A stretch of DNA of 64,000 nt from Tubulanus polymorphus. Taxonomy: Eukaryota > Animalia > Nemertea. Numbering within the stretch: the first letter of the stretch is position 1; each line of letters opens with the position of its first letter. The stretch is taken from NCBI RefSeq assembly GCF_964204645.1, contig NC_134030.1, forward strand, positions 13,306,957-13,370,956, written 5' to 3'. Below are positions 12,936 through 64,000 of the stretch, in pieces. Made by a program: the position numbers and the translations under genes. A model generated the notes under the pieces. That model searched no databases and was not told where the DNA came from. It worked only from the letters and a program-made list of their open reading frames with translations.

Positions 12936-13158
12936 ATATAAAAAAACAATAACTTCAACTAGCTAGTGAATTCTCTTATATTTTTAATATTTTCTTTTGC
13001 AATTCTTGTTAACACTAGATTAAATATATTTTGAATGGGTTTGAATAGAAATTCTTTAACTTTAACTAACCTAGTCAATTTAGTATTAACCAAGAAGAGA
13101 TACTAGTATCATTTTATAATACTTATAATATTTTTTTTCGCTTTTTTCTCTAATATAA

Positions 13159-13767
13159 ATGTCAAAGAAATCTAATAAGAATAGTATTAATATTGAAAAA
13201 ACATTAGATGATTTGGGCATTAGTGATAATAAGGATATTCCGACCAAAATTGAAAATAATATTAATTGTAATATTGATTATGAATACTACTTATATTGTA
13301 AGCACCATCTTGAATTACTAATTGCCGGAGGGAAATCTAAGGATTTCTTGGAAAAAATAATTACTTTTCAAGAATTAGACTCTATGAAACCAGATGAAGT
13401 AATAAAATATTTTAAGATTTATGAAGAGGCAAGATTAGCTAGAATTAATGATTCTATTTCTGATGGTATTATAAAATGTTATTCAAAATTATGTAACCGG
13501 TTAATGTCAATTGATGATGAAAATAAATTATATAGTGATTTGAAAAATGACTACTTAGTTATGACTGAATTACAAAAATGGGTTGGATATGCTTCATTCC
13601 AATTAGGATCGGTTATGACATTAATTTCTACTGGTGTCATAACATTTTCGAATATCAAGCCTATAGACTATAAACCAGGTAAGAACGAAACAGATGGCGC
13701 CGTACGGCACCCAAACGGTGAAACAGAAAATGAATCAGAACAAAAATTAACTAAAATAAATGAGTGA
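13159..13767 (+). CDS. Polinton ORF A, hypothetical, hydrophobic segment near C-terminus
   Basis: Intact 202-aa ORF; clear homolog at 58860-59432. Confidence 0.8.
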   Translation: MSKKSNKNSINIEKTLDDLGISDNKDIPTKIENNINCNIDYEYYLYCKHHLELLIAGGKSKDFLEKIITFQELDSMKPDEVIKYFKIYEEARLARINDSISDGIIKCYSKLCNRLMSIDDENKLYSDLKNDYLVMTELQKWVGYASFQLGSVMTLISTGVITFSNIKPIDYKPGKNETDGAVRHPNGETENESEQKLTKINE

Positions 13768-14128
13768 TGGCGTTAAGAAAAAGCCTAGATCTGAGAAACA
13801 AATTATATGGGCAAGAGAATTAGGTAAAAGATCTGCATAATTGAAAAAAGCTAAGAAAAAGAAATTAACTGATATAAATCAGTCACAGACTTTATCTGAT
13901 ATTGATTCAAATAATAATCCATCTAATTCTTCTAATGCTGGAAGTAATAATTACTTATATATTACAATTGGATTAGTAACAGTTATTATATTCTCTGGTG
14001 TAATATATAAATATAAGCATAAATCTGATGATAATGATGATTCCGATGATAATAAACCTATCATACCAGAAAATAAATCAAATCATAAAGTCATTGAAAC
14101 TAAATCTAAATTATTATTAATGGATTAA
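13760..14128 (+). pseudogene. Polinton ORF B (basic N-terminus plus one TM segment), in-frame stop at ~13838
   Basis: Intact homolog at 59425-59781 (MSDDVKKKPRSEKQ...YITIGLITVIIFSGVIY). Confidence 0.8.
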
Positions 14129-14134
14129 AATAAG

Positions 14135-15222
14135 ATAAAAAAAGAACAATATTTAAGATAGTTATATTACAACCCAGAGAGTGAATTATCATATTCTAAC
14201 GTTTCAGAATTATGGGATAAAATTAAATCTGATAAAGAAAATGGTGATATAAAATATAGTGAATTAAGATTGTGGTTACAAAATCAACCGACATATCAAA
14301 TACACAAGAAAATGGATAAAACTTATTTTACAAGAAAAGTTAAGGTTTCATATATCGATCAACAATGGCAAGCTGAATTAATTGACATGAAGAACTTAGA
14401 GGAATACAATAAAGGATATTTCTGGATATTAAATGTTATAGACATATTCAGTAGATACGCATGGTCAATTCCAATCAAAAATAAAACTGGAATAGAAGTG
14501 ACAAATGCTTTTAAATCAATATTTAAAGAAGCTATTCCAGATAAGATACAATTTGATGAAGGTAAGGAATTTTATAACAAACATTTTTAAAAACTATTAT
14601 CTGATAACGATGTAGATTATTTTTCAACACACTCAGATAAAAAAGCATCTATTATAGAAAGATTTAATAAAACATTGAAAACTAGAACGTGGAAATATTT
14701 TACTGCTAATGAAACATACAAATATATCGATATCTTAGATGATTTAGTGAAAGGTTATAATAATTCTAAACATAGTTCTACACATATGCAACCTATACAA
14801 GCTAGAAAAGAAGATAATTCAGAAATAGTTTGGAATAATTTATATGGAGCGTTTGTTACACATGCTTTCGGAGAACCTAAATTTAAAATTGGACAACACG
14901 TTAGAATATCTAAATATAGAAAAACATTTTATAAAGGTTATAGCCCAAATTTTACTGAATAAATAAGATTAAAAAGATAATATTAACTAAACCTTTTTTT
15001 TATAAATTAGAAGATATAAATGATGAGGAAATATTAGGTTATTTCTATGAACAAGAATTATCACTTGTACCAAATCCAGATGAAATAGAATACAAAATAG
15101 AAAAAGTATTGAAAACACAAACTCTTAAAGGAAAAACGTATTCTTTGGTGAAATATAAAGGATATGATGATCAATTTAATGAATGGATTTTATCTAGTAA
15201 AATTAAAAGAATAAATGAATAA
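14135..15222 (+). pseudogene. Retroviral-type (rve) integrase with C-terminal chromodomain, disrupted
   Basis: WQAELIDM (D in copy 2), IQFDEGKEF, SIIERFNKTLK; chromodomain YKIEKVLK...LVKYKGYDDQFNEWI; start codon mutated to ATA; several stops. Confidence 0.92.
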
Positions 15223-15858
15223 AGATTTATTTATATTTGAACCGCATAATATGTTAGTTACTGGTGTGACCAACTGTTGTAAAACACATTTCATATTAGA
15301 CTTGTTAGAAACTATTTATAAGAATCATTTTGATAATATAATATTATTCTGTCCTACATATGAAATGAATAAAACATATAATAGAGATATAGTTAAGATA
15401 AATAAGTTTATTATCTTAGATCCTAAAACAGTAAATTTAGATAATTGTATTAAAATAGCAATTGATATTTATAAAGGTTCAAATACATTATTCATTATAC
15501 ACAAATCAGTTAATGCTACATGAAAAATTTTCAGTGAAACCGAGCATGAGTCACATAATTTCGTGGATACAATACTCTGCGCTTGGAAAATGTCGGTCAT
15601 TTCCAGGATGCTACGGTGAATTGTAAAAATCTATTTACAGAACTGATAAGAAATTCCAACGAGTCATAAAACTGAGAAGTATACATGCGCATATACAAAA
15701 CTACACTTGGAGTAACCGCGAGTTTCAAAAACAGATTTAGATTACTATATATTTCACGAATCATTCGATGAACATCGTATGAATAAATTTTCAATAATAC
15801 ATCATTATAAATAATACATCAATATAAATATTTTCGGATTATAAATGTGCATTCAAAT

Positions 15859-20919: not shown

Positions 20920-22329
20920 GATCGAACATGTACCATGATTTTAACGCAAAGCCTAAGTCAGAGAACATTATATCTAAAAACACATTTGTTTGTGGTTTAT
21001 GTTAGTTGTATTTCCCGCCAAATAGCTGTTGCCGACCAACTCGGAACAGTTTCAATTTTCCCTGGTTTTTAATTTCGGAGTTTTATATTTTAAATGGAGT
21101 TTTGTTTATAGGATATAACAAATATTTTGGACAAATACAAATAGTTACATCAATATTAATAAGTGAAAATATTCTAAAGATCTGTAGAAGGATAAAAAAT
21201 GGCTAATTCGTAAACAAAATCCATTCCTATATCTCATTGCCGTTCAATCACAGCGCTTATAATTTCTAAGAAATCTCATATATTATTAATTTACTTATGC
21301 AAGATACTGTAAATAATTCCTTTAATGCGTAGTAGTTGTATCGAATTTAAAGTTGTAGGTAATACAACAAATATAACAAGCGCTATGTGTATAGTGATTG
21401 ACGTCATCCTTCCTAGCAGTGTTACACTGCTGTACTATTTTTAGCATACGTCACAAATCTTTTACTGAAACCTAAAATCTACGCCCACCATTAATGATAT
21501 GAATAAACATATGACGGAAAACGATGGCTAACATATCAACCAAATAGCAGAGTATATGGTCATCTTCAAGTAGTTATTCCATTTTACAAAAATGTGTATA
21601 CATGATATAGGTCAGTCGGTTTTTGGTACCCAAAAATCGTAAAAGTTGACCTAGCAGACCAAATAGACAGACCCAAGCTATAACCATATACTTTTCAGTT
21701 AGATACTAACCTATAGTAAGCCATGTTAATATTCATGTATGCAAGTTTTTAGTGGTGGGCGTGGATTTTGTCGATTCTATTCGGATTTATAGGTAAAGTA
21801 ATTAGCAAATTACGAGAAAAGTAGTGGGCTAATCCGAAATTTTATTTCACAGTTCTCTTCAGCACATGTTGACCTTTCGTATTGGCACTGGTTTTTTAAA
21901 CAAATTATAATTCATAGTAGAACAAATTTAACATTAATCTCCCTAGAATAACAACACATCGAATAGGCTGTACTGCAGCGTGCAGCATTAACTGATTTGT
22001 GTAGATGATTGCCCAAATTTACATGATTCAAAAGTGAGAGAAAGTGAGTTATGTTATCTAGCTTTCTCTGGGAGACATTTTGGGATAACAACATGGGTTT
22101 TAAATCAAAAATATAAGTCAATTGTTAAAGACTTTAGGGAGAATATAAGATTTCTAGTTTTATTTTATAACAAAGATAGAAAATCTATGCAACAATCATT
22201 GGAAGAAAATCAAATTATACCTACTGAATTACATGATGAATATATGAATAAATTAAAGAATAATAAAAGTTCAAAATTATTACTGAGGCTTCAATTTCCT
22301 TATGAATATAAATTTATAAAATAACTATT

Positions 22330-23460
22330 TATATATCTATGTACGAGATGTACGAGTAAGAAACCAAGATTCTTGCAAAGAAAGTAAGATTTCTTGGATT
22401 CTTGGATTCTTACTCGTACGTCTAGTACATAGATATATAAATTATTAAATGAAATATATAATAATGAATAAATCATATATTAAAACATGTTTATAATTTA
22501 TGTTTACAGAGGGGTACAAATACACAGATTCTTGCCAGGAAAGTAAGAAAGTAAGAATTCTTGGATTCTTACTCGTACCTCTCGTACATAGATAAATAAA
22601 TAGTTTTGTAATAATTAAAAATATAAAAATGAATAAATTATATGTTTTCACTTGATAAAAATAAAAAATAGATTATATTATAACTATTTCTGTACTTAGA
22701 TTAATAATTTACATTTTTAATTTAAAAAAAAAAAATTATATATGTATGTACGAGAGGTACGAGTAAGAATCCAAGAATTCTTGGATTCTTGGATTCCTAC
22801 TCGTACCTCTAGTACCTGTCTTACTTTCTTGGATTCTTAGATTCTCACGTACGTCTAGTACATAGATATATATAATAGTTTTATAATAATTATTCTAATT
22901 TTGTCTCTAATACATTTATAAAATCATCTTTGTTTATATCTAATTCACCATAAGTCTTAGGTAGATTTATTAATTCTAGTCGAGCCATCTTTAAACGATA
23001 ATTAGAAGGTATATTAACTTCTTTTCTTAATTTTTCAAAGTATTCATCAAAATCATCATAATAAAAATCAAAACTATGTACGAGACGTACGAGTAAGAAA
23101 CCAAGATTCTTGCCAGGAAAGTAAGAAAGTAAGAATTCTTGGATTCTTACTCGTACCTCTCGTACATAGATAAATAAATAGTTTTGTAATAATTAAAAAT
23201 ATAAAAATGAATAAATTATATGTTTTCACTTGATAAAAATAAAAAAATAGATTATATTTTAACTATTTCTGTACTTAGATTAATAATTTACATTTTTAAT
23301 TAAAAAAAAAAAAATTTATATATGTATGTACGAGTGGTACGAGTAAGAATCCAAGAATTCTTGGATTCATGGATTCTTACTCGTACCTCTAGTACCTGTC
23401 TTACTTTCTTGGATTCTTAGATTCTCACGTACGTCTAGTACATAGATATATATAATAGTT
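22330..23460. repeat. Central array of imperfect palindromes (GTACGAG-TAAGAATCCAAG-AATT-CTTGGATTCTTA-CTCGTAC), including a ~578-bp tandem duplication
   Basis: Units at ~22331, 22500, 22745, 23074 and 23325; 22526-23072 is duplicated at 23104-23665; lies where the + and - gene blocks converge. Confidence 0.9.
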
Positions 23461-23503
23461 TTATAATAATTATTCTAATTTTGTCTCTAATACATTTATA
23501 AAA

Positions 23504-24634
23504 TCATCTTTGTTTAATATCTAATTCACCATAAGTCTTAGGTAGATTTATTAATTCTAGTATTAATTCTAGTCGAGCCATCTTTAAACGATAATTAGAA
23601 GGTATATTAGCTTCTTTTCTTAATTTTTCAAAGTATTCATCAAAATCATCATAATAAAAATCAAAATGATTTCTAAAATTATTTATCAGATAACTTAAAT
23701 CTATTTTTCTAAAATATAATAATTTATATATTTGTTCAGGATTATCTTCTGCATAAGCTAATAATTTATCAAATAACAACTTATAGAATATATAATATTG
23801 GTTAGTTTTAGGATTAAAATATTTGATATATTTCTTTGGGTTATTTAACAATGGTATCATACTCACCATTTTATAAACATTAATTAGATGTAATTTTGAT
23901 TTATAATGAGTATTTTCATCAACAGATTCAATTTTCTTATTACAATATTGACACGTTTTATTTCTTTCTTTTTCTTCTTATTTCTTTTCATGTTCTTCTA
24001 ACTCCCTTTCATTTTCTATATGCGCTTGAGATTTTTTATGTTTAGAAAAATTACTTTTAGAAATATCTAACTTACAAAGGTTACAATGTTTTTTAGAATC
24101 ATCAATTATTTCATTATCTGTTATATCATTATAATTAGTTTCAATTGGGTTAACATTATTTATTACATTATCTGTTATATTATCAATGGTATCATTAGTT
24201 TGAATTGTATTAACATTATTTATTAAATTATCTATTATATTACTATCTGATATATTATTATAATTATTTTCTTTTTCTACACGTTTCTTTGATTTCTTAT
24301 GTGATGCCCACTTTTTATATGATATATATTTCTTATTTACGTCACAATATTTTTCATTTGTCTTTTTGGTTTTGATATCAGGTTCAATCTTATCATCATT
24401 CGATGTAGAAGGTATAACATTATCTTCTATTTTTGTTTCAATATTATTATCTATTTTAGATTCAATATTATCTTCTATTTTTGTTTCAATATTATTATCT
24501 ATTTTACTTATTCTATATTTGAATTGATTAAAGTATTCTCCAAAATACTTACTGTATTCATCATAAGGTATTATATAATATATGTCTGATATCATTTCAC
24601 TTGGACTTTGTATTTCATATATTCCTCCTTCCAT
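23504..24634 (-). pseudogene. Polinton multi-zinc-finger protein, disrupted (two ORF-track pieces of one gene)
   Basis: HCNLCKLDISKSNFSKHKKSQAH; after a stop and frameshift TCQYCNKKIESVDENTHYKSKLH leads into the 23869-23504 ORF. Confidence 0.65.
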
Positions 24635-25896
24635 TTATTATATAAATTTTTATTAAAATTAAAATTCTAATACATACCACTATTTAATTGAGAATTTACA
24701 ATATTTAATTGCGCGTCAGATATAATATAAATGTGCATTTTGAAATTTTTGATTCCTTTCTACTTTTTCATGAATAATTGTATTCCATCTTTTGTATTTC
24801 GTAATTTTTTTTCCAGAACCATGTAATGAATTATCCTCTTTTGTTCTGGAATCTAACCATAATGCATATTTATTGCCGGTATGATAATCAATTTGATTAA
24901 TATTACAATTTTCAGATGATTTTACTTTTTCATTCATAAAATGTTTTCTAATTTCTGGCCACTGATCTATCATTCTCATTCCTTGGCAAAATATCTTATT
25001 TGCTATACCTTCGATAGTTATTTCTTCTTTTGTTATTTCAGGATTATAATACTTATCAACCTGTATTGCACCATTAGAGTATGTTGCAATTGTGAAAAAT
25101 ATTAATATACCTTTAATAGATCTTCTTGGGAAGTTAATATTCTCATTAATTATTTTATCACTTGCATTAATAGTTACAGTTTTAAATTTATCAATATAAT
25201 CATATAATAATGAAAATCCTTGATTGTATTGAGTTTGAATTGTGTTAGCAATATTTTCATCAGTTAATGTATCATATTCTAAACTTATATTCGATAATTT
25301 ATAACCCATATCTTTGACAACGCTAGATAATACAATTTCATTTACAGGAGCAAATGTTATCTCAAATATAACATCTTCTTGAATTGCATATTTATACAAA
25401 GGTGCATTATTATTTATAAATTCAAAGTCTAATGGAATTTTACATTTGCTTCCATATATCCTTTTTATCAAACTATCTACGTCATTGGCTACTACTGCAT
25501 TATTGGCTTCAGATCTTAATTTATTTTGGTTTTCTGATTGGATGCCTTGAAATATCATATTATTTCTATTTTCTTTAGTTAACCATAAATCTTTATAATG
25601 CATAAATAAATTATAATCATCTAATGAGAAAACTGTTTCTGGACCAATCTTTATAGTTAATTTTTTAATCAAATATCTTCCAACATTATCAACAACATAA
25701 TTATTATTATCACCAGTTACTTTTATATCGGCTGATAAATAAATGCTTTTTGGACATAAAAAGTATTTTGTGTTAATCTAGGGATTCTAACATATAAAGT
25801 TTCATCGGGATTAATATTAGAAGGGTTATGAGTTATTATATGATGTGATCTTCTGCTTTAATGGCATTAGATATTCTATGATTCTTAGAAGTACTT

Positions 25897-28800
25897 AATA
25901 ATAATAAATTTATTTCCACAATAAAATTACAACATGTCATAAAGAGATATACAAATATGAAATGTTTTAATATAATGTGGAGGAGATTAGATGAAGCCAA
26001 TGAAGGCTTATAAGATCTCTAATCCCCTAGCATACACCGATTCACTCAACTCATACACACATGCAGTCATACACCTTCACCCAACATGCACCCACACACG
26101 TAGTCACTCAGGCGGTCAATAACACTATCTTTCATTCACTCTTACAATCTGGTAATAGATGACAGATACAGACAGATTAATTACAAATTTATTAGATACA
26201 ATTTAAGTTTTCTTTTGAAAGTATCTATACACGACAGTTGTTTTAAACTTTTTGGCAAATTATTCCAGACAACAGGACCAGAAATTTTTACTGTGAATTG
26301 TGTTTTGTTAGTCCGAAATCTGGCAACACGAAAAGAATTTATATTTCTGGTTGAATACGAGTGTATATCAACATTCTTTTTGAAATCCCGATTAAAGGAA
26401 TTTGGCAATTTTGAATTATTGAATTTGAACATAAATAGACTTAATTGAAATTTTGTAATATGTCTAAATTTTAGGATGTTCAATTTCCTGAAGATAGGGT
26501 CAGTGTGTTCTAGGAAATGAGACTTATTAACTATTCTTACTGCTCTTTTTTGTAGTAAAATTAGTGGATTAAGCTTGTTTGCATAATTACTTCCCCAGAT
26601 TAAATTACAATATTGTAAATGAGGATAAACAAAACTATAATAAAGGGTAATAAGGATATTTGATGGGAAATGCTTTTTTAATCTGGTTAAAATTCCAATG
26701 GAGCGTGACACTTTACTGCAGACATATTTGATATGGACATCCCAATTTAATTTGTCATCTATAAAAAGACCAAGAAAATTCGTACTATGTACACGTTTGA
26801 TTAATTCTCCATTTAACCAAATGGAAGAATTAAAGTGATCTACACGACCAAAAATCATAAAGTGGCATTTCGCAATATTTATTGAAAGTTTGTTTACTTG
26901 ATACCAGATGCCAAGTTTCGCCAGTTCAGAATTTACTATGGAAACCAATTCTTTGATTAGAGTTACTATAAAAACAATTCGTGTCTTCGGCAAAGAGGAT
27001 AAAATGGAGTAATTTGGACGCATTAACGCAATCGTTAACGTATAATAAAAAGAGCAAAGGGCCTAGAATAGAACCCTGGGGTACACCAATTGATATATTT
27101 AATGGCGACGATAAGGTATTGTTGAAACTTAAAACTTGACTCCTGTCAGTCAGGTAGCTTTTAAACCAATCATGAGGAACACCTCGGATTCCGTAATAAT
27201 CAAGCTTCATCAACAAAATGTCGGTGTCGAATGCCTTAGACAGGTCCAAGAATAATCCAATAGTAATATTCTTATTTTCCAAGGCTTCAGAAAGATTATC
27301 AACAACCTTGGTTAATGCCAAATCTGTTGAATGTTTTGAACGAAAGCCAAACTGGTCGGGGATTTCAATATCCTGTTTGTTACAAAAGGAAACCAATCTG
27401 TTGTAAACTAGTTTTTCCAGAATTTTTGAGAAGCTAGGAAACAAAGATATGGGTCGATAATTATTTAAAGAATTAGGGGCTCCGGATTTAAACAAGGGAC
27501 AAACTTTCGCAATTTTGAGTTCATTGGGAACTATTCCAGTCTGAAGACTACGGTTAAAGATATAGGATAAAGGGAACTTAATGATATCAATCACCTGTTT
27601 TATAACAAAAATACTCAAACCATCGACACCGGCACTCTTCTTTAAGGGGACACCCGAGACCACATCACTTATTTCATGAGGTGAAGTCGGAAAGAGAAAT
27701 AGACTTTCATTGACACGTTTATTCATATATTGATGAAAGGATTGCCCTGTATCAGGGATTTGAGTAGCAAGCCTTTCACCAATATTTGCAAAAAAATTTT
27801 TTAACTCGTTGGCGATGTTTATATTACCAGAAATAACACGTTGATCAGAAGTAAAAGAATTAGGCATTTTAGAATAAATGTTTCTACCTAAAACTGTGTT
27901 CAACAGTTTCCACTTTTCTTTCATATCATTTCCAGCAGCGAGCAATTTTTCAGAATAATAATTAGATTCGGCTTTGTTAATAAGCTTTGAAATGAGATTT
28001 TTGTACAAGTTGTATTTTGATTTCATTTTTTCTGAACGTGTTCTAATAAATTTCCTATAAAGGTTGTTTTTTGTTTTAATTGCTGCGATAATACCAGGAG
28101 TTATCCATGGTTTATAGAATGAGGGATTAATATGATTAACTGGTACCAGAGGGAAAACTTGATTGAAAACTAAAGAAACTTTTTCAATGAAAGTAGTGTA
28201 AGCAACTGAGGGATTATCAGATGAATACACTTCACTCCAGTTAATATTCATTAGTAATCTGTTGAAATTAGAAATATTGCGCTGCGAGAAAATTCAAGTT
28301 TTAAAAGGTTGTCTGTCAGACAGAGGCTGATCACCACTGCAGATAGTAAATATTGGGTAATGATCCGAAAGGTCGGTCATAAAAATCCCAGATTTGTGAA
28401 CATGTCGCAAATCGTTACAAAAAATATTGTCAATTAAGGATGTCGAGTCACAAGTTACTCGAGTTGGCTTGTCAATCAAAGGTGAAACAGACTGAGAAAA
28501 TAAAGATTCGAGAAATATTTCAGTATCTTTGTGCGTATCATATTTCATGAGATCTATATTAAAGTCCCCCACCAGGCAGCAAAGTTTGTTCTCGCGAGTA
28601 ATTTCTGCCGTTAAAACTTCAAATTCATCTTGAAAAGTTGGTAATTTTCCAGGTCTATATATTACTCCAATAATAATATTGGATTTTTTATCTAAAACAA
28701 TTTCGATGAATAAAGATTCGAAAGTATGATTCCTAGTTGATAAGTCTGTCCGTACTTTGAAATTGAAATTTTCCTTTAGGAAGAGAGCTACGCCGCCACC

Positions 28801-29440
28801 AAGTTGACCATTGGCGCGGGATTTAAAAATACTCCGTTAATTCTATACAAATTGGAGTTAGAATTATTTGAATTAGTCCAAGTCTCGGTCAAACCAATGA
28901 CCGAAAATTGACCATTACAACAATTCAAAAAATCAGTTAAACTGTCAAAATTTTTGTTGACACTTCTGATGTTATGAGAAATGATGGATAGAATTCCCCG
29001 TTCAAGAGGAGAATCCTCGTCAACATTAAAGTACAAACAACTGTTGTTTGTAGAAGGTATATCAGTTACTGAGCTTTTCATACAAATAACAAGTCATGGT
29101 GTTTGACTAATATTCCTGGTTTTTTCTATTGAAGGTGGTATTCCGGATAGTGATCTCTCCTTTCGTTTTGCCGAGGTCGGTGTGCAGAAAGCATCACTAG
29201 TGACGCCATCTATTGCCCCGCAAAAGTGTTTAAGCAATGCAAGCTTGCCGGTTTCACTGAGGTGAATACCACTTTGATCGGTCGGCGAATAAAAGTGGTC
29301 CAAAGCTTTACCAGACGGTTTAAGTTTCAATATAGTGTCATTATCAATAAACATGATATTCTGTTCCGCGCATAGTTTCCCGATATGGTTGTTAACTGCT
29401 CTTGCAAGGCTGTTGTACTCTTTTACGTTGTTGGAGTTAT
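25897..29440 (-). mobile_element. CR1/L2-group non-LTR retrotransposon, 5'-truncated within ORF1, inserted in the MCP gene
   Basis: ORF1 SGNH-like remnant (FIDND...SGIHLSETG); APE motifs (HNIRS, GLTETW, GDFNID, SDHYPI); RT motifs (NYRPISL, DLSKAFD, GVPQGSILGP, FAED); AATAAA plus (TTA)n tail. Confidence 0.93.
26181..29081 (-). pseudogene. LINE ORF2 (endonuclease plus reverse transcriptase), frameshifted
   Basis: Four ORF-track fragments with colinear EN and RT motifs. Confidence 0.92.
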
Positions 29441-29473
29441 ATAACTCCCACTCATTTATTTAACAAAAAAATT

Positions 29474-31185
29474 AATTATTTATTTTTTATCATATTCACT
29501 AATCCAAAAATAATTGCAGTTACAATGTAATTATAAATAAAATAATATGTTCAGCAGCAAAGTTAAGAATATTCCCTGCAGATTTCAATATACAACCAAC
29601 AATCGATGCAATAACTCCAGGTAATGCTGCAGGAGATTTTTTAGATAGTTCCCATAAATATTTTGCTAATTTCTTTAAACCATCCTTAACTTTATCTTGT
29701 ATAAAATTATTATCATTCGGGGGTTTATCCGGTTTATTGGGAGTAGGAGTAGATTTCAGTGAATTTGATATAGCTAAACCTATTGTTGTAAATACCATAG
29801 TTACAGCTGTTAGAATTGAAAGAATTGTGATTCCTTCTAATTTAAATAATAATTTTATTCTGTCTTTCAATGATATTTTAGAATCTGGTTTTATTATTAA
29901 ATCTTTAAAAATAACTTTTAATTTTTTAATATGATTAAGATCATATGATTTTAATAATATATCTCTTTCTTTTTCCTGAAATCCTTTGTTATATTTTAAA
30001 TCAACTATTTCTTTTTCTACAGCTAACTTTCTGCTTTCATAATAAGCTTCCTCTATTACTTGAAGATCTCTATTTAATTCTAATTGTTTTAATTCTTCAT
30101 TTGCATTAGTTATTTCTTTTTCTAACATGGTTATTTTAGAAAATCTCATCTTAATATTAGCAATTTCACCAGCTGATTCCTGCATACCTTTAATTTCTCT
30201 ACGTGCTGGTTCGGGAAATGCTTCTAATTCATCATCAGTTAAATCAAATAATCCTTTTTCTAGTAAAGATTGTATTCGATTTATTCCATTCATCAGTTCT
30301 TCTGTATCACTTAATCTATCAATTTGTTCTTCTAATACTATTTGTAATTGACTTGAATCATTATCAATTTGTTGAATATCTCTTCTCGATGTTTCGAGTG
30401 TTGAAGATCTTAATCTATCTAATCGATCTGCAAAATCTTCATATGTTTCTGGATCAACAAAAATAGGATTTTGATTTGGATTTTTAAATGGTGAATATTT
30501 GTTTATATCAATATTAGGAATTGGTTCTTCTTCATTTATTCTATCGATTGCATTCCATACAATTCTGAGAAATTCTCTACCACCTTTTGAACCTTCAATT
30601 GTAGATCTTGCTCGCATTCCAGGTTCAAAAATATTTTCTTGACCCATTCTAGATAATTGTATTGATTCAGTTTTACCATTTAATTCAAGATTATAATACC
30701 ACGCATCATTTTTAAATTCTAAATTATTCATGAAATATGGATCATCTTTTTTAATTTGTTCTACAACACCTTCTATATCAATTTCATATATTACTTCTTT
30801 TGGTAATAATTCGTTAACAATTGTATCTGTTACTCTAGTTTTCATTAAATATAATTCTTCTTTCAATTCAGGGTTTTCTGTTCTTTCTAATCTATTAATT
30901 AAATATTTTCTTTCTAGTCTAGTTTTAATAACCCCCCTTTCGGAAGCTGTCATATATTCTTCAAATTTTTGCGTGTTTCAATATCATCTTTATATTCATC
31001 ATAATCATATAATATTGGCCCACTAGAATCATCTTCACTTAAATTAGTATTATATGCTGATGAATCATCATCATTATTATTAGATTCAGTATCATTATTA
31101 TTATCATTATTATTATTATCATTATTATTATCATTATTATATTTCCCATGTCTTCCATTGGAATATCTACTCTACCTTCTGCCAT
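29474..31185 (-). pseudogene. Polinton coiled-coil/membrane protein (MAEG start, Asn-rich N-terminus; includes the 477-aa ORF 29520-30953)
   Basis: Heptad-rich middle region; hydrophobic GITILSILTAVTMVFTTIGLAI and C-terminal segments; frameshift in an ATT-repeat. Confidence 0.7.
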
Positions 31186-32588: not shown

Positions 32589-32783
32589 TTAATAATTAAC
32601 TAATTCTTTTAATAATTTATCTCGTTCTTCAACTGTTATATGGCCATTTAAACTTATTATATAATCTCGTGTGTTTTTTAATTTATTAATTTCTTTTATA
32701 TTAGTTTTAATTTTTTCTTTATTTCTTTTTATATTTAATTTTGAACTTATACCAGTTAAAACACTTGAACTTAAACCTAGCAC
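32589..32783 (-). CDS. Small Polinton ORF fragment
   Basis: 64 aa, amphipathic then basic; start uncertain. Confidence 0.4.
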   Translation of the reverse strand: MLGLSSSVLTGISSKLNIKRNKEKIKTNIKEINKLKNTRDYIISLNGHITVEERDKLLKELVNY

Positions 32784-33114: not shown

Positions 33115-33141
33115 TTATTTAGCAAAGAAATTATGCACTTC

Positions 33142-34859: not shown

Positions 34860-34930
34860 TTATTATACATATTTTTATTAAAATTTGATTAACACGCTAG
34901 AATCCTTTTCATTCTTTCCTTCTCTTTTGT

Positions 34931-49659: not shown

Positions 49660-50160
<501 letters not shown>

Positions 50161-54520: not shown

Positions 54521-54745
54521 AGTAAATAGGAATAAGTTGTTCTAGATCAAAGTTCGAGAGGTCGAATTCATAAAAAATGAAAAATAAATTCTCGCACACT
54601 CGAATTTATTTTTCATTTTTTATGAATTCGACCCCTCAACCTTTAATCTAGAACAACTTATTCATATTTACTCTTAAAATGTTCATATATATAAATGAAT
54701 AACATGTAAAATCAATTTCAATAGAAATTTGGATATTAAAATGGA
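54521..54745 (+). repeat. Left TIR of Polinton copy 2 with a 152-bp terminal hairpin (54521-54672)
   Basis: Arms AGTAAATAGGAATAAGTTGTTCTAGAT... / ...ATCTAGAACAACTTATTCATATTTACT; loop TCGCACACTC. Confidence 0.9.
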
Positions 54746-55437
54746 GCCAGAACCATCACAAACTAACAATATTACAATATAACAAATAATATTATATAAC
54801 ATATAATGGTGTTATAAATATATACTACAAGAAATGTTCTAAATGTGAATTAGATAAGCCATTTACAGATTATTATAATTGTAACATTGGTAAAGATGGT
54901 TTTCAAAATACTTTTAAAAATTGCAAAAAAGCAAATGATAAACAATATTATATAAATAATACTGAAAAATGCAAAGAAACAAAAAAACAATATTATATGA
55001 ATAATAAAGAAATATGTAAAGAAAAAATTTAACAATGGAAAGAAAATAACCCAGAATATGTTAAAGCGTACCAAAATAATTATCATAAAGAAAAATACCA
55101 AACAGATCTTAATTTTAAATTGAAACAATGTTTAAGATCTAGATTATCGCAATTATTCAGTAAAGACAAACACTCATACACGCTATCTAATTTGTTAGGT
55201 TGCACAGATGAATTCTTAAAATCATGGATTGTATATCAATTCGACGATAAAATGAATATAGATAATTATGGTGAATACTTTCATATTGATCACGTGTTAC
55301 CAATATCGAAATTCAACATGAATGATGACCACAATCAGAAGCTAATCTGGAATTGGAGAAATTTAAGACCTCTTGAAAAGAAGGAACATTTGATTAAACA
55401 TAGCAAACTTGATTTACAGTTATATTTGGAGCAATAA
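54741..55437 (+). pseudogene. HNH-type endonuclease with N-terminal zinc ribbon (type common in large DNA viruses), disrupted
   Basis: KKCSKC..K...KDG...KNC; LRSRL..LLGCT..FLKSWI..QF..MNIDNYGEYFHIDHVLP..FN..NWRNLRPL. Confidence 0.8.
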
Positions 55438-56670
55438 GATAAAGCAAAGACATTTGTTGAATTATGGAATAGTAGCTCGCAGAATTGCCCACATACTGAA
55501 TTTTATAAACGCCCGATAATACTCAACTATATAGCTGGATGTATTAGCTGTAGTTTGGTAAACATCTGTTACCAGCTTACATTTCAATTGTAAAGAATTA
55601 ATTTCATAAAGCCTATAAAAGAACAGCTGTCACCAGAGTTTCCATGGTGCCAGACAGTGCCTTGACGTATTGAGACATAGTGAATCGCCCACCTCTGGCA
55701 CATTACATCATCCTCGATCGCGCATACAGAACGCATTGGATATTCTCTCTCGAAACACAGTTTACAGTTCTAAATCTAAATGTAAGTACCGTTTTTGTAG
55801 TTATTATGAAGTAGGGAAACCTTTTAACATATTTAAGTACAGTAATTCACAGCAACGCTGTGATAAAACATCCGTTAGGGGTTATTTGTATTGATATATA
55901 TTTAACAACAGCTCTGTGACTTTGGAATACTCCGAGCTGTAATAAAGTGAAATACAAGCCACTTCCCAAACTCACAAGCTATGTTTTGACTCGTGTTAAA
56001 TTTTAACATTAACCTGGTTCAACTTCAAGTTAATTATGTTCTACGCTAGATATCTAGCTAGATATCTTTTAGATATCAAAATGAAGACCATTGAATCAAG
56101 AAGGTGAAGATGGATGGATTCTGAATCAGAAATTATGGTTATTTCATCACAAGAGACTGAAGCTGTTTCATCGTGCTCTATTATATATGTCGGAATTGCA
56201 GTTGCGCGTACATTAGTCGTTCGGTCGTTATTAATGGTGACGGCTGTTCTGTATTGATTGTTACAGTTCTATGTTTGAATGTTGTAGTTTACAGGATAAA
56301 TTATATAATCCACGCATGCGCACTGAGCAAAAGCGGTCTTCTAGGACCGCATTTCTATGGTTCTCCATTGTTCTATCTTCGATCGCTACAATTTGCATAA
56401 TAAATATATGTGTTTATGAAATAGTAATTCCACCAGGCGTTTCGTTGAATTTATTTTCCGTTGAGGATTTATTATCGAGAACCCGAAATGACTTATCTGG
56501 ACAGTTATAGTTACCGCTCCCATAGATAGACAATAGTAGTGAGATATTGAATCCTGATTTAAATAAAAAGTATTAAAAAAAACAATAACTTCAACTAGCT
56601 AGTGAATTCTATTATATTTTTAATATTTTCTCTTGGCAATTCTAATTGACACTAGATTAAACATATTTTG

Positions 56671-56751
<81 letters not shown>

Positions 56752-58859: not shown

Positions 58860-59432
58860 ATGTCAAAGAAATCGAGTAAAAATAATACCGATATTGAAAA
58901 AACAATTGAGGATTTAAGTATTACAGATAATAAAGATACAGTTGTTTCTAATTGTATTCAAAATGATGATATTGATTATGAATACTATTTAACATGTAAG
59001 CACTATCTTGAGTTACTTATTGCTGGTGGAAAATCTAAGGATTTCTTGGGAAAAATTATACCTTTTCAAGAATTAGTTTACATGAAACCAGATAAAGTAA
59101 TAAAACATTTCAAAATATATGAAGAAGCTAGATTAGCTAGAATAAACGATTCTATAAGTGATGGAATAGTAAAATATTACTCAAACTTATGTAACCGAGT
59201 AATACCAATTGATGATGAAAATAAATTATATAGTGATTTAAAAAATGATTATTTAGTTATGACAGAATTACAAAAATGGGTTGGATACGCTTCATTTCAA
59301 TTGGCAGGAATAATTACAGTAATTTCTACTGGAGTTATAACATTTTCTAACATTAAACCTATAGAATACAAAGATAAAAGTAAATCAGAAGATATTGAAT
59401 CAGAACAAAAATTAACTAAAATAAATGAGTGA
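58860..59432 (+). CDS. Polinton ORF A, copy 2
   Basis: Intact 190 aa, homologous to 13159-13767. Confidence 0.8.
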   Translation: MSKKSSKNNTDIEKTIEDLSITDNKDTVVSNCIQNDDIDYEYYLTCKHYLELLIAGGKSKDFLGKIIPFQELVYMKPDKVIKHFKIYEEARLARINDSISDGIVKYYSNLCNRVIPIDDENKLYSDLKNDYLVMTELQKWVGYASFQLAGIITVISTGVITFSNIKPIEYKDKSKSEDIESEQKLTKINE

Positions 59433-59781
59433 TGATGTCAAGAAGAAGCCTAGATCTGAAAAACAAATCAAATGGGCGAGGGAGTTAGGTAAAAGATCTT
59501 CAGAATTAAAAAGAGCTAAGAAAAAGAAATTAACTGATATAAATGAATCACAGAAATTATCTGATATTGATTCGAATGATAATCCATCTAATTCTTCTAA
59601 TACTGGAAGAAATGATTACTTATATATTACAATTGGGTTAATCACAGTTATTATATTCTCTGGTGTAATATATAAATCCAAATCTAATAATAATGATTCC
59701 GATGGCAAACCTATTATACCAGAAAATAAGTCAAATGATAAAGTCATTGAAAATAAATCTAAATTATTATTAATGGATTAA
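59425..59781 (+). CDS. Polinton ORF B, copy 2
   Basis: Intact 118 aa with one TM segment. Confidence 0.8.
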   Translation: MSDDVKKKPRSEKQIKWARELGKRSSELKRAKKKKLTDINESQKLSDIDSNDNPSNSSNTGRNDYLYITIGLITVIIFSGVIYKSKSNNNDSDGKPIIPENKSNDKVIENKSKLLLMD

Positions 59782-59787
59782 AATAAG

Positions 59788-60844
59788 ATGAAAAAAGAAC
59801 AATATCTAAGAGATTTATATTATAACACAGAGAGTGAAGTATCATATTCTAGTATTTCAGAATTATGGGATAAAATTAAATCTGATAAAGAAAATATAAA
59901 ATATAGTGAATTATAATTATGGTTACAAAACCAACCCACGTATCAAATCCACAAGAAAATGGATAAAAATTATTTAACAAGAAAAGTCATGGTTTCATAT
60001 ATTGATCAACTATGGCAAGCAGATTTAATTGATATGAAGAACTTAGAGGAATACAACAAATGATATTTTTGGATATTAAATGTTATAGATATATTCAGCA
60101 GATACGCATGGAGTATACCAATAAAGAATAAAACAGGCATAGAAGTTACAAATGCTTTTAAAAATATATTTAAAGAAGCTATTCCAGGTAAGATACAATT
60201 CGATGAAGGTAAGGAATTCTATAATAAACATTTAAAAAAATTATTATCTGATAACGATGTAGAGTATTTTTCAACACACTCAGATAAAAAAGCATCTATT
60301 ATAGAAAGGTTTAATAAAACATTGAAAACTAGAATGTGGAAATATTTTACTGCCAATGAAACATATAAATATATAGATGTATTAGATGATTTAGTGAAAG
60401 GTTATAATAATTCTAAACATTCAAGCTAGAAAAGAGGATAATTCAGAAGTTGTTTGGAATAATTTATATGGAGCGTTTGTTACACATGATTTTGGTGAAC
60501 CAAAGTTTAAAATAGGACAACATGTAAGAATATCTAAATATCGAAAAACATTTTATAAAGGTTATACTCCAAAATTTACTGAAGAAATATTTAAGGTTAA
60601 AAATATAATACTTACTAAACCATTTGTTTATAAATTATAAGATTTAAAAGATGAAGAAATATTAGGTTATTTTTATGAACAAGAATTATCACTTGTACCA
60701 AACCCGGATGAAATAGAATACAAAAAAGTATTAAAAACAAAAACTCTTGAAGGAAAAAAGTATTCTTTGGTGAAATATAAAGGGTACGATGATGAATTTT
60801 ATGAAAGGATTTTATCTAGTAAAATTAAAAGAATAAATGAATAA
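59788..60844 (+). pseudogene. rve integrase plus chromodomain, copy 2, disrupted
   Basis: WQADLIDM, QFDEGKEF, IERFNK; stop at 60061 and a deletion at ~60421. Confidence 0.9.
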
Positions 60845-60960
60845 AGATTTATCTATATTTGAACCACAAAATATGTTAGTTACTGGAGTAACCAACTGTG
60901 GTAAAACACATTTCATCTTAGATTTGATAGAAACTATTTATAAGAATCATTTTGATAATA

Positions 60961-63900
60961 TGAAAGGCTGAATCCAAGAACATGTCTATCTCACTTTTGA
61001 GCCCAAACGTCTACTTTTACTTAGTAGCCACTTGAGAACAATAAGCAATTAACGATATCAGCTACTTTTCCAGTAGTATACATTTCAAAACAGTCACTCT
61101 GAAATAGTATTCTATTAGTCTACTATTGAAAAGTGACCATTTTGAAACATCTGGTTTCGATAGTGCACACTAGCAGTAGAGGTGACTGTAAAACCACCCG
61201 CCTGTTAACAGTGACTTAGTGATAGTAACTCCTACCATAGCAGCTACTCTCAAAACACATCGTTTCTAAAAGTCAACTATTGAAAAGTGACCATTTTGAA
61301 ATGGCATGGTTATTTCCTGTTCAAAATAGCAGCATCTGTTAAAGATTTGCAGTGATACGTGACAGGTTCAAAGGTACTGTCAAACCCTATATGCTTTGTG
61401 TACAGAACTCTGTATGCTTTGAATACAGTTCTGTGAATAGAAAATCAAAGTTTTTGAGTTGCTAAGAATCCCCTAAATTATATTACGCTCAACAAAATGG
61501 AAAACTATTCATTCATATAACATCATCATGGATTAAATCCATTAATACTAAAATATAGTGCCAGTCCTAGAATTCTTTACATTTGCGATTATAAAACATT
61601 CTGGTGCGTTCATAAATCTTTGATTTTGTAGGAAAGAAAGACAAGACAAAAAAATAAATTTGTCTTTTAGGCTTAATTTGTTTTTAAGGGTATATGAGAG
61701 AGGATTTACAAATAAAATCATATGTTCAAAAAATGAATTACGAAAAAAATGTATCTAAAATACTTAGAATTAACCTTGAATTAATTGTTTGTTTCGATAC
61801 AAACGATTTTTAAATAATCCATGTGATGTTCACTTTGTCACGCTGTTCTCTGCTTGTTCGTTAATGAATATTGAATCATTTTATCGCTTGCTAGAAATGA
61901 TACCATAATCAAAATCTTATTTCGTAGTTATACAGTTTGGTTGAAATGAAATTACCAACTTATTATAAAAGATCAAACGATTAGCGTATAAAAGTGCAGT
62001 GTTGAGATGTTTACGTAATTTTGAAGTCAGCAATTTCATTTGATAGAGAAAAGTTATTTTGGCTTAAGATGTGAAAGAAATGCAATATGCTGTAATTCTA
62101 GTTTCACATACTTTCCCACTTTGTTGAGTAAATTGTTTATATAGGTTATCAAAAACCTAGCAGCAGCTATCGGTCAGCAGGTCAATTACACTGGCTAACT
62201 AGACAGTGATTGATGAACGAATGAACAAACTGCATTGGCCACCAAAAGACCACAAACCAAAAGTAATTACCTCTTAATATTGATAAACTTAGCACCGCAA
62301 TATCTCTATGAAACTTTATTTCAAGGTGCCAATACAATAACATGCCAAAATGTACGGTGTTTGAACTTCGCTGAATCGATGAACCAATGATCGCTGAATT
62401 ATAAGATTATCAGTTAACTCATTAACTGAATTATCAGTTTTCTCCAACTAAACTCTTTTTCTCAAATTATCGTAAACCAACGTTACCAATACTTGAATTT
62501 GGAAGTGAATGTGAGCTAGAACTAACAAAGGTACCGGTTTAAGGTGCAGATATACAGGGAATCCCTCTTCTAGCGACCAACACGGTTTTATATCGCTTCT
62601 TTGCCGATTAGTAAATAATTTTCGATCTAAACGGCTACAGGACCCGAAGAAGTCGAATAAAATACTCTAAAACGTGTTAACTGTAGACAAATGAAGAAAT
62701 TCCACAATAGAATTTTGTATCATGAAATTTATTATAGTTAAACCACAACGTTTCAGCTGTTGACTGACAGCCATCTTACTAAAAGCCCTTATCACTAGGA
62801 ATGTCTACATTCCACCTGATGATGGCTGTTAGTCTACAGTCAAAACGCTGCGGTTTCACCTTAACAAATTTTATCATATTTAAAATTCTATTTCTTCATT
62901 CATGACCCCAGGGACGATCACCAAAGGCCGTAACCGTAATCCAAATGAAATCTTGAATACCATAAAAAGTTTCTTCTATTAAATTCGATCAAATATGGGC
63001 ACAATTTAGATGATTTCTTTAGAATGTTAAAAATCCACATGAATATAGCATATTTTGTTTGAAAAAAATCAATGATTTCGCAAAATTATAATTCAGGGAA
63101 ATTCGAACACTCCGAAATGTCTTAATTTAAGATGCAAAGACATCCAGGCCCCCGTTGAAGATAAACCACCATTTCAATAATGAGAGGTTAGCCTGAATTT
63201 TTGCGCTTTTAATCTAAGAATTTAAATCAAAAATAAATGCAGACCTATGCTTGAAAATAGCTGCATTTGTTCAAATTGAATTCTTTATTCAATTACATCG
63301 CCATGAAAAGAAGGAAATTTTGATTTATCTTAAAACTACATAACTATTGACAATTTGTAAACAAATTTAACTCCAATTGAGAGTTGGGAATCGCTCATTA
63401 CATTTCACATCCTCAAAGATAGTATCTACAATATCTTCAGATCTCAACTGAGTCACTCTTTAATAGAACTATACCCCAAACTATAGCGTGAGTAGAGTTT
63501 CTCAGTATGTTTATATTGTCACGTATCACTGCAAATCTGAAGCATATGTTGCTACAGTGTATTTATAACAGGGAATCTGGCAAGCGATCTCAAAATTGTC
63601 ACTTTTCAACAGTTGACTTTTAGAAACGATGTGTTTTGAGAGTAGCTGCTATGGTAGGAGTTACTATCACAAAGTCACTGTTAACAGGCGGGTGGTTTTA
63701 CAGTCACCTCTACTGCTAGTGTGCACTATCGAAACCAGATGTTTCAAAATGGTCACTTTTAACAATAGTAGACTCTTAGAAACAGCCACTATAGAAAACC
63801 AACCGAATTGAAAGGAATACTATTCCAGAGTGACTGTTTTGAAATGATACTACTGGAAAAGTGGCTGATATCGTTAATTGCTTATTGTTCTCAAGTGGCT

Positions 63901-63965
63901 ACTAAGTAAAAGTAGACGTTTGGGCTCAAAAGTGCGATAGACATGTTCTTGGATTCAGCCTTTCA
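60961..63965. mobile_element. Non-autonomous DNA transposon with ~350-400-bp TIRs (TSD TA, or ATAT if the termini are GAAAGG)
   Basis: TGAAAGGCTGAATCCAAGAACATG... mirrored at ~63590-63965; empty site GATAATATAATATT in copy 1. Confidence 0.9.
62706..62892. mobile_element. Inverted pair of Penelope-like ends with degenerate hammerhead cores
   Basis: ~85-bp imperfect inverted arms; CTGATGA-stem-(A)AAAC on plus and AAGA-stem-GAAAC on minus. Confidence 0.4.
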
Positions 63966-64000
63966 TATAATATTATTCTGCCCTACTTGTGAAATGAATA

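Follow-up and report, generated by a model that had tools for sequence, protein, structure and literature searches.

Decayed Polinton-type virus copies with poxvirus-like late promoter motifs at their gene starts

Two decayed Polinton-type copies in the window

The window (the whole stretch of 64,000 nucleotides that was analysed) contains two decayed Polinton-type copies, A at ~12940-39125 and B from 54519 to at least 60956, which belong to a family of ~100-200 copies. According to Pfam, the window carries rve, Chromo, Pox_A32, and DNA_pol_B_2 domains. GC content of the element bins is mostly 19-27% (31% in one bin), compared with 30-42% in flanks and inserts, and is ~20-27% for the element overall. 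Together with rve, a DNA polymerase B of the protein-primed type (pPolB), A32 ATPase, and a double-jelly-roll capsid protein in two copies, these values bear out the AT-rich Polinton family proposed in the initial annotation. The proposed span of 12940..64000, however, holds only in part, as it also includes LINEs, other transposons, and a host homeobox exon. The features of copy A are as follows.

13159..13767, + strand: o202, conserved ORF, T-run and TAAATG start
13760..14128, + strand: o122, interrupted by an internal stop, a single hydrophobic stretch, TAAATG start
14135..15219, + strand: broken rve integrase, chromodomain at the C-terminus, start codon no longer present (Pfam rve/Chromo, tblastn)
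15215..15544, + strand: 5' part of the A32-type packaging ATPase, TAAATG start (Pfam Pox_A32)
21992..22324, + strand: 3' part of the ATPase, with ~6.4 kb of inserted DNA between it and the 5' part
22294..23500, no strand: palindrome cluster at the convergence of two gene blocks, enlarged through a 580-nt duplication; z -13.9 for the first hairpin
23978..24634, - strand: 218-aa zinc-finger-like gene, TAAATG start
24648..24658, - strand: A-rich core TTTTAATAAAA, intermediate-like, 24 nt ahead of the zinc-finger gene ATG
24670..25900, - strand: body of the major capsid protein (MCP), double jelly roll, frameshifted
26000..29440 (ends approximate), - strand: non-LTR retrotransposon near the 5' end of the capsid gene, foreign to the element (Pfam RVT_1)
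29440..29500, - strand: capsid gene start (29455), T-run and TAAATAAATG, as at the capsid starts of relatives L001-L003
29520..31185, - strand: coiled-coil protein with hydrophobic C-terminus, T-run and TAAATG
31202..32572, - strand: o456, open throughout, 77% identity with L001, T-run and TAAATG, no match in fold search
32592..33352, - strand: o132 remnant, s139 (start 33114), and s75 (start 33352), small and broken; the two surviving starts are both TAAATG
33408..33719, - strand: o103, T-run and TAAATG
33740..34493, - strand: putative minor capsid protein (inferred label), broken, TAAATG without T-run
34506..34883, - strand: o117, 117-aa ORF (start 34859), TAAATG, core TTTTAATAAAA at 34873-34883
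34931..38892, - strand: pPolB (start 38866), many breaks, TAAAATG, core at 38882-38892 (Pfam DNA_pol_B_2)
38970..39123, - strand: right terminal 150-nt hairpin, z -10.7, early-core-like AAAAAATGA(A/T)AAATA inside

Copy B and the DNA between the copies contain the following.

49663..50160, - strand: host homeobox exon, which we take to be Gbx-like (Pfam Homeodomain, E 2e-24)
54521..54672, + strand: left terminal 150-nt hairpin, z -18.7, homologous to that of copy A, outer stem co-varies
54741..55473, + strand: HNH-like gene, broken, TAAAATG start, core variant ahead
58860..60956, + strand: o202, o122, integrase, and 5' part of the ATPase, 85% identity with copy A
60955-63971: TIR transposon that cuts copy B

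Lying between the copies, the homeobox exon indicates a host chromosome of animal origin. As regards terminal inverted repeats and target-site duplication, the two terminal hairpins are homologous and oppositely oriented but come from different copies, and neither copy has its two ends inside the window. Immediately past the right terminal hairpin of copy A, read depth drops from ~1070 to 18.

Of the Polintoviricetes hallmarks, pPolB, rve integrase, double-jelly-roll MCP, and A32 ATPase are present. The window pPolB matches DNA_pol_B_2 (E 9e-7), and the 1273-aa pPolB of a relative aligns over 34970-38299 (tblastn). The rve fragments in the window (E 1e-6) stay below the Pfam cut-off; the integrases of intact relatives, 77-80% identical to the window integrase, pass it and carry Chromo. 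The capsid protein is predicted as a double jelly roll (pLDDT 84.8, pTM 0.86), which matches PBCV-1 and iridovirus capsids in Foldseek (E 4e-11). Pfam reports no protease among 39 window frames, where the genes are broken, or among 9 ORFs of L001, which is partial, and no RNA polymerase gene is recognisable in the element. As the window copies are broken, any present-day function would rest on other copies.

TAAATG at gene starts

TAAATG is found at 15 of the 18 ATG-bearing starts in the window (12/13 in copy A and 3/5 in copy B), compared with 45 of 770 other ATGs in the element DNA (5.8%). The 3 exceptions are pPolB and the HNH-like gene with TAAAATG, and the copy B integrase with TAAGATG. 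Among tree-placed relatives the motif is limited to two capsid clades, with 67/71 starts (34/37 in clade I and 33/34 in clade II), versus 2/33 in all other rows of the capsid tree, both from the long-branch L036. GC-rich relatives retain it (L007 with 44% GC, 3/4; L008 with 40%, 3/4; L047 with 39%, 6/6), and AT-rich sister clades lack it. The TAA is the stop codon of the preceding gene in just 4 of 94 cases, 36 of the 94 starts being divergent, and the triplet ahead of ATG in clade I/II relatives is TAA throughout, with no TAG or TGA (0/71). The late-type motif noted at the outset is thereby upheld, and these counts support a real, lineage-specific, promoter-like motif that is independent of AT content.

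T-rich patch upstream of the start codon

In the window, TTT occupies positions -14..-12 in 5 of 12 distinct TAAATG genes. Among relatives, T is present at -12, -13, and -14 in 32, 27, and 23 of 34 clade I starts, and in 26, 25, and 27 of 33 clade II starts (pooled, 58/67 at -12 and 52/67 at -13). Against local T content the peak at -12..-14 has p values of ~1e-9 to 1e-3. The vaccinia late consensus consists of TAAAT(G) over the start codon together with a conserved T located 10 nt upstream, at position -13 (PMC11980589), and in two poxvirus control stretches T is found at -13 in 8/9 TAAATG genes. Thus, the T-run claimed for late-type starts lies near the vaccinia position both in the window and in relatives, and both sequence features of a poxvirus late promoter are present. 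The data support a match to both parts of the poxvirus post-replicative promoter, the ATG-overlapping initiator and the upstream T peak. Some differences exist, however: the Polinton peak lies ~1 nt closer to ATG than the peak of the pox control (-13..-15), a small sample, the Polinton has no early-type genes, and TAAATG is found at >90% of its genes versus 9/25 in the pox control stretches.

Proposed mechanism and identity of the helper

Since nearly every gene starts with a poxvirus late signal, the element probably relied on co-infection by a large DNA virus; such dependence is also the best reading for an element with no recognisable RNA polymerase. The window element is a multicopy, decayed endogenous animal Polinton-type virus whose TAAATG and T-rich layout probably served such a virus's RNA polymerase as a post-replicative promoter, the virus being most likely pox-like.

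The rve-chromodomain integrase would insert the genome into host chromosomes, where the element, with no Pol II-type promoter ahead of its genes, would be largely silent. Upon helper infection and the onset of helper DNA replication, late factors and polymerase of the helper would initiate transcription within the AAA of TAAATG. Slippage at this site, by analogy with vaccinia, would yield a poly(A) leader directly abutting AUG, which would account for T at -3, where non-TAAATG relatives have a Kozak-type purine. In the AT-rich subclade, the A-rich core, found at pPolB and some further genes, may permit somewhat earlier, intermediate-type expression. pPolB would replicate the genome from its hairpin ends, and ATPase and MCP would package it, the helper bearing the cost. 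No early stage would be needed, by analogy with mavirus and Sputnik, whose promoters are of the helper's late type.

As for the helper, it may have been an iridovirus-like virus (Pimascovirales), TAAATG being a general NCLDV late promoter. In this sub-case of the preferred explanation the element would still depend on a helper, but neither the pox label nor the three-stage vaccinia cascade would apply; as a whole it is rather unlikely. Iridoviruses of aquatic invertebrates are well known, and TAAATG is found at 14/42 non-seed ORFs of an iridovirus-like contig (capsid best match Singapore grouper iridovirus, E 5e-123), at 8/20 non-seed ORFs of a second one (capsid Singapore grouper iridovirus, E 2e-73; 7yjl, 1e-77), and at 4/8 ORFs of L129, which from its gene set we take to be iridovirus-like. 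The three contigs also have TAAAATG variants (5, 4, and 1) like those of pPolB and HNH, versus 0/25 in the pox control, and one match to core, spacer, and AAATG is located in L129. The T peak, in contrast, is not sharp in these contigs: in small samples chosen by one motif match and with seed ORFs removed, T is found at -13 in 11/26 starts, compared with 59/74 in Polintons (p=0.0009) and 8/9 in poxviruses. Hence the claim of pox-like transcription stands as far as both promoter parts match the poxvirus type, but because iridovirus-like contigs start 26/70 ORFs with TAAATG it is not exclusive, and a pox-like helper is favoured only; no helper virus was found among the sequences available. Given dependence, the chances of a pox-like helper are about even, an iridovirus-like helper is possible, and another NCLDV is doubtful.

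Sister clades and reading by the host

The motif could also be read by the host, either as an unusual Pol II core promoter or as a translation-start context, in which case the element would be autonomous in the nucleus; this is unlikely. Many starts equal TATATAAATG and so have a TATA box within, but Pol II start from an ATG-abutting TATA box falls inside the ORF. T at -3 is contrary to the purine of sister-clade starts (A or G in 39/43), and the fixed T-run spacing fits a viral polymerase promoter. On the other side, hallmark genes of coral polintoviruses are reported as expressed in approximately half of 49 elements, in colonies without reported infection (PMC11131425), and the algal PLV TsV-N1 is described as autonomous (PMC11296320).

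Non-TAAATG relatives have TATA at most 20 nt from ATG in 29/43 cases (shuffle mean 12.3, maximum 22), a distance too short for a Pol II TATA box and an arrangement that resembles the late initiator of ASFV. A tentative extension of helper dependence, which we regard as rather doubtful, is that a widespread animal Polinton lineage consists of provirophages of cytoplasmic Pokkesviricetes-type viruses. Promoter grammar would switch by clade, recording helper switches between T-run with TAAATG (pox-type) and T-run with TATA (asfar-type), with unknown pox-like viruses in aquatic invertebrates, a two-step cascade, and a member replicating in the sample of run X1.

A-rich core, early-type motif, and sorting by gene function

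The number of TTTTAATAAAA matches in the window is not significant (3 versus 0.99 expected, 8/100 shuffles reaching 3), yet all 3 sites lie 24-26 nt ahead of an ATG (pPolB, o117, and the zinc-finger gene), so the motif claimed as intermediate-type stands by position and not by count. It recurs in the closest relatives, where 5/6 sites in L001-L004 precede a start, and the geometry of core, spacer, and TAAA fits 3 window genes and 4 distinct genes of relatives, one of which also has a T-run. An A-rich stretch in place of the T-run likewise characterises the vaccinia intermediate promoter (core, ~12-nt spacer, TAAA; PMC12917281), but since that core lacks a consensus, every A/T stretch would qualify.

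In clade I the core precedes 6/20 non-structural versus 1/51 structural starts (p=0.0015), most "structural" labels being inferred; of the 6 non-structural genes, 3 are clearly orthologous, representing a single zinc-finger gene, and one more is a different zinc-finger gene. However, the core is found at 0/41 clade II starts, in L001 it precedes the minor capsid gene whereas o117 has a T-run, and T-runs are not sorted by gene function (p=0.47). The sorting by function that had been proposed therefore applies loosely and to the AT-rich subclade only.

Regarding the proposed early promoter, AAAANTGAAAA has 5 matches versus 2.4 expected (6/100 shuffles reach 5). Of the 5, 3 belong to the arms of a single homologous terminal hairpin and are directed at its loop, and the perfect AAAANTGAAAA within the terminal hairpin points into the loop, 150-250 nt from an ATG with its own promoter. 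In poxviruses the early core sits 13-25 nt upstream of a gene's start site; none of the listed 45-nt regions upstream of window starts contains it. As an unenriched, hairpin-bound motif with a single homologous instance, it is not supported as an early promoter, and of the three promoter classes initially distinguished a late-like and possibly an intermediate-like one are left. An early/intermediate/late set sorted by termini, replication, and structural genes and serving inducible antiviral defence, despite the core sites ahead of non-structural genes, the vaccinia-like geometry, and the hairpin motif, is consequently improbable. Finally, AT richness and tight packing, by which TAAATG would arise from stop-start coupling or as an upstream guard stop (the element has low GC, and TAA is a stop in frame with ATG), is a very improbable source of the motif, largely refuted by the background, the GC-rich relatives, and the stop usage, and it gives the upstream T peak no reason.

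Comparison with known systems

The mavirus provirophage of Cafeteria is similar in being integrating, capsid-encoding, Polinton-sized, and equipped with promoters of a large-virus late type; it encodes pPolB and rve (PMC4642659), its promoters match the late promoters of CroV, and the provirus is silent until infection (bioRxiv 10.1101/068312). Mavirus, however, has a protist host, a Mimiviridae helper, a TCTA-type promoter, a virophage capsid, a protease, and dependence established by experiment, whereas the window element has an animal host, a TAAATG/T-run promoter, no protease found, and helper dependence deduced from its promoters.

The entomopoxvirus-linked PLVs mentioned in the initial annotation do exist: AHEV_PLV1/2, CBEV_PLV1, and Ca_PLV1 are animal PLVs with double-jelly-roll MCP and A32 ATPase, proposed as poxvirus parasites on the basis of co-purification with occlusion bodies (PMC11296320). 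They have an adenovirus-type protease and a tyrosine recombinase or none in place of rve, so that the window element, having rve, falls outside this group (Barth 2024) as far as its available description goes. The available text of PMC11296320 has no matches to motif, TAAA, transcription, or upstream.

Gezel-14T / PgVV (Aquintoviricetes) is a PLV with the promoter motif of its helper and helper-dependent transcription (bioRxiv 10.1101/2022.07.28.501842), but has an algal host, an early AAAATTGA motif, and tyrosine recombinase with TVpol, not rve with pPolB. Maverick-Polintons of groups 1 and 2, Polinton-3_NV, and N1A_NV share animal-type pPolB, rve, ATPase, and MCP, although in comparison with groups 1/2 no protease was found in the window element. 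The pPolB of a clade II relative matches leafhopper and gastropod records. Octocoral, hydrozoan, and bivalve elements nearest Aquintoviruses and outside groups 1/2, which may represent the window lineage, are described in bioRxiv 10.64898/2026.06.19.733378, the available text of which describes helper-type promoters for no Maverick-Polinton.

It has long been asked whether animal Polintons live as autonomous viruses, as transposons, or as virophage-like parasites that exploit larger viruses. No report of helper-type promoters in animal Polintons was found in the literature, nor, in the texts available, an established helper or promoter. A helper-type promoter at >90% of gene starts provides a sequence-level answer for one Polinton lineage. 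The promoter is testable with a 45-nt reporter, for which an intact element is not required, and start contexts may indicate, for any endogenous PLV, the family to which its helper belongs. The finding also hints at undescribed pox- or irido-like viruses in aquatic invertebrates; if the tentative extension to a widespread lineage is true, the sample of run X1 would be the place to find the helper.

Anatomy of the two copies

The window was read as animal DNA because a homeobox exon (Pfam E 2e-24), which we take to be Gbx-like, lies there among LINEs and TIR transposons. Copies A and B belong to one Polinton-type family (85% identity across 2.2 kb). Both are decayed, with stops, frameshifts, or insertions in most element genes of the window, and copy B is interrupted by insertions. 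The principal features are:

~12940 to hairpin 38970-39123, both strands: copy A, gene blocks and terminal hairpin
Copy A, + strand block: o202, o122, integrase-chromodomain, ATPase
22294-23500: palindrome cluster at the meeting point of the + and − strand blocks of copy A
Copy A, − strand block: pPolB, o117, putative minor capsid, o103, s75, s139, o456, coiled-coil protein, major capsid, zinc-finger gene
38970-39123: copy A terminal hairpin, 150 nt (z −10.7)
49663-50160, − strand: homeobox exon, host DNA between the two viral copies
54521-54672: start of copy B, terminal hairpin homologous to that of copy A (z −18.7)

The capsid stretch has a predicted double jelly roll fold (pLDDT 84.8; best PDB match E 4e-11). 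No putative structural ORF of the window or of L001, a close relative among the metagenome loci, has a Pfam capsid match. As for o456, its structure model is of low confidence (pLDDT 58) and matches no known fold (lowest E 0.036, highest Z 3.8), with neither a PDB sequence match below E 0.02 nor an Atlas match. Rfam reports 0 matches across 12000-64000.

Nested insertions lie at 4674-11825, 15545-21990, 26000-29440, 39160-47500, 56680-58750, and 60955-63971, comprising a pair of LINEs, two TIR elements (73-nt palindromic subterminal repeats in one of them), and two large elements without a Pfam match. Copy A also contains a short palindromic unit rich in GC, in frame once in o202 (~13695-13722) and twice in o456 (31315-31385, − strand); this unit is missing from o202 of copy B. 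L001, the closest intact relative, also carries a deoxynucleoside kinase and, by a weak Pfam match, a SLATT-like membrane protein at 10343-10981 and 2541-2972, respectively; a remnant of the SLATT-like gene is present in the window at 32592-32783. No named viral donor appears among 38 matches of the kinase.

TAAATG at gene starts

TAAATG is found at 15 of the 18 window starts that retain an ATG (TAAAATG at 2, TAAGATG at 1), versus 45 of 770 other ATGs in element DNA. Internal in-frame ATGs were discarded as a control because TAA cannot stand before them. To extend the count to relatives, an alignment of 52 capsid proteins was used to fetch 69 metagenome loci, and starts were taken from 14 homology families, using closed ORFs that had the expected length, with near-identical upstream regions merged. 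The capsid tree includes 38 proteins; 32 of the 69 loci have no capsid ORF of at least 300 aa and hence lie outside it. Two supported clades with TAAATG are recovered, and the window falls in clade I. Among tree-placed loci TAAATG precedes 34/37 starts in clade I and 33/34 in clade II, and 2/33 in the remaining rows, both from the long-branch locus L036. This count is preferred over an earlier one (36/39, 38/39, 4/5, and 0/43), whose clade labels were partly assigned by eye for loci outside the tree. Neither count includes the decayed or fragmentary loci L029, L055, L057-L060, L062-L065, L068, and L069. The start motif proposed in the initial annotation is real, and stronger than that annotation could show.

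Base composition or tight packing as the source of TAAATG is largely ruled out by its retention in relatives of 39-44% GC, by the low frequency with which the TAA is the stop of the preceding gene (4/94 cases), and by the 36/94 starts that are divergent. Upstream GC is similar as well (0.25 in the non-TAAATG group vs 0.19 and 0.28), and neither TAG nor TGA ever stands before the ATG. At −3 a purine, as is usual for scanning, is present in 39/43 starts of non-TAAATG relatives, so the T found there in TAAATG starts needs another explanation.

Within clade II, L039 DNA downstream of s139 falls outside the pPolB family of L052/L061 and, judged by eye, resembles a different pPolB type (L039/L049 compared with L052/L061); a swap of the replication module is possible.

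Likeness to poxvirus late promoters and candidate helpers

In clades I and II, T is enriched at −12, −13, and −14 (p 1e-9 to 1e-3), and A peaks at −17/−18 upstream of TAAATG starts. According to the available text of PMC11980589, the vaccinia late promoter has TAAAT(G) on the start codon and a conserved T ten bases upstream, which corresponds to −13. Two Pfam-confirmed 16-kb poxvirus stretches from motif scans, with seed ORFs removed, served as a control: TAAATG is found at 9/25 non-seed ORFs and T at −13..−15 in 77-88%, the Polinton peak being about one base closer to the ATG.

The controls came from two IMG/VR motif scans (59 and 65 loci), which yielded two poxvirus records and several iridovirus-like ones, the latter being non-pox NCLDVs that carry VLTF3 and iridovirus-like capsids. 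Neither scan revealed a candidate marine poxvirus, nor any contig that uses TAAATG as often as the Polintons do (best 3/5 and 6/12). TAAATG is not fully poxvirus-specific, and the helper may instead be an iridovirus-like virus, since iridovirus-like contigs begin 26/70 non-seed ORFs with TAAATG (a small sample). Their T at −13, however, is present in 11/26 cases vs 59/74 for the Polintons (p=0.0009) and 8/9 for poxviruses, all small samples. Two further NCLDV sets have TAAATG at 2/7 and 1/9 starts, and promoter reviews yielded no description of its use in iridovirus-like NCLDVs. Poxviruses provide the best match among described promoters.

Three iridovirus-like contigs, L129 (10,838 nt), G001, and G002, have TAAATG at a third to half of starts. 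A resolvase search from L129 matched only L129 itself, and an Atlas search gave no name for its protein. Searches with the Polinton capsid (MCP) turned up no relative in IMG/VR (7 and 68 candidate stretches) or in prokaryote genomes (0/39). Overall, the element probably depends on a helper virus; if so, the chances that this helper is pox-like are about even.

Second motif and early-type core

The initial annotation also proposed early and intermediate promoter classes, with motifs sorted by gene function. TTTTAATAAAA has three copies in the 64 kb, each 24-26 nt ahead of pPolB, o117, or the zinc-finger gene. In L001-L004 (L002 and L003 being near-duplicates), 5/6 copies lie ahead of a start. 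Such placement fits the layout of the vaccinia intermediate promoter, whose core, according to excerpts of PMC12917281, has no consensus. In clade I the motif favours non-structural starts (6/20 vs 1/51 structural, p=0.0015, with most structural labels inferred); zinc-finger genes make up four of the six non-structural cases, and three of these are clear orthologs. TTTTAATAAAA is absent from clade II, and in L001 it precedes a putative minor capsid gene. T-runs show no sorting by function (p=0.47).

The early-type core (as defined in PMC5294985) occurs only in the terminal hairpin, save two scattered matches; it is oriented toward the loop, is not enriched, and is read as part of the end structure; the early class is not supported. 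Two other candidates were rejected: an early-like stretch before pPolB of clade II (L052, L061), which in L052 overlaps the final codons and stop of the preceding gene, and AAAATTGA at 38889, oriented away from pPolB, of which the window has 18 in all. Neither the three stages nor the antiviral role of the initial model is supported.

Hairpins

Both terminal hairpins (38970-39123, 54521-54672) are near-perfect 150-nt palindromes with TAAAT oriented toward the loop on both arms. Their outer stems vary between copies A and B, both arms changing together, and the inner core is conserved. Near-perfect terminal palindromes recall hairpin telomeres. Long hairpins of unrelated sequence follow the ATPase gene in the window (22294-23500, z −13.9), L002 (3720-3837, −8.9), L004 (3163-3275, −9.3), and L001 (9173-9340, −4.0); none of this type is among the longest repeats of L039. 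They are candidate 3'-end signals or origins.

Copy number

For raw reads of run X5, depth over the pPolB region is 490-1070 vs ~5 in single-copy-like bins, or roughly 100-200 copies at 85% likeness. By summed contig depth, which is not a copy number, the pPolB excess is ~90-185-fold in X2, ~100-240-fold in X5, and ~2,000-3,000-fold in X1 (77,692-114,973 vs 37.5 for a single-copy piece), a run that may be the window's own source. Element DNA (36500-39155) is 10-20 times commoner in X1 than in X2/X5, whereas a host repeat (51108-52435) is not, with ~180-350-fold in all three. The longest record has 83,013 nt in X1 and 3,826 in X2. The X1 excess may stem from replication of a family member, from library bias, or from an artefact.

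Proposed mechanism and sister clades

The element would lie silent within the host chromosome, and helper late factors would activate its genes. Transcription, either in the nucleus or in a cytoplasmic factory, would begin in the AAA of TAAATG, giving a poly(A) leader; replication would proceed from the hairpin ends, and packaging would compete with the helper. Against silence counts the expression of coral polintovirus genes, reported for about half of 49 elements of unspecified lineage in the accessible portion of PMC11131425. Helper-matched promoters are already known from mavirus, whose transcription is drawn in the nucleus (bioRxiv 10.1101/068312, in part), and from Gezel-14T (bioRxiv 10.1101/2022.07.28.501842, in part). 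The entomopoxvirus-linked Polinton-like viruses mentioned in the initial annotation are indeed published, with no promoter analysis in the available sections (PMC11296320). Two 2026 preprints on PLV diversity do not mention "promoter", and octocoral, hydrozoan, and bivalve elements are placed outside the main groups in the available text of one of them, bioRxiv 10.64898/2026.06.19.733378. Excerpts of PMC11464507, 10.1101/2024.03.23.586382, PMC11788076, PMC8400408, and PMC4642659 provide general background only. Searches of the openly accessible literature (main texts, without Repbase notes) turned up no report of pox-type promoters in animal Polintons.

In 29/43 starts of non-TAAATG relatives a TATA lies within 20 nt of the ATG (shuffle mean 12.3, maximum 22), compared with only 5 that have one in the next 20 nt upstream. 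Sister loci with TATA near the ATG are L015/L016, L017, L020-L027, and L050. In several genes of L015 (49% GC) this TATA is accompanied by a T-run ending 10-11 nt upstream, resembling ASFV late promoters (TATTT at −15..−11, TATATA at the start site). Over all 29 TATA starts the upstream T signal is weak (~50%), so an ASFV-type reading of the sister clades is only a lead. Taken together, these start-site patterns suggest that the whole capsid lineage may take NCLDV late machinery, its promoter grammar shifting with the helper.
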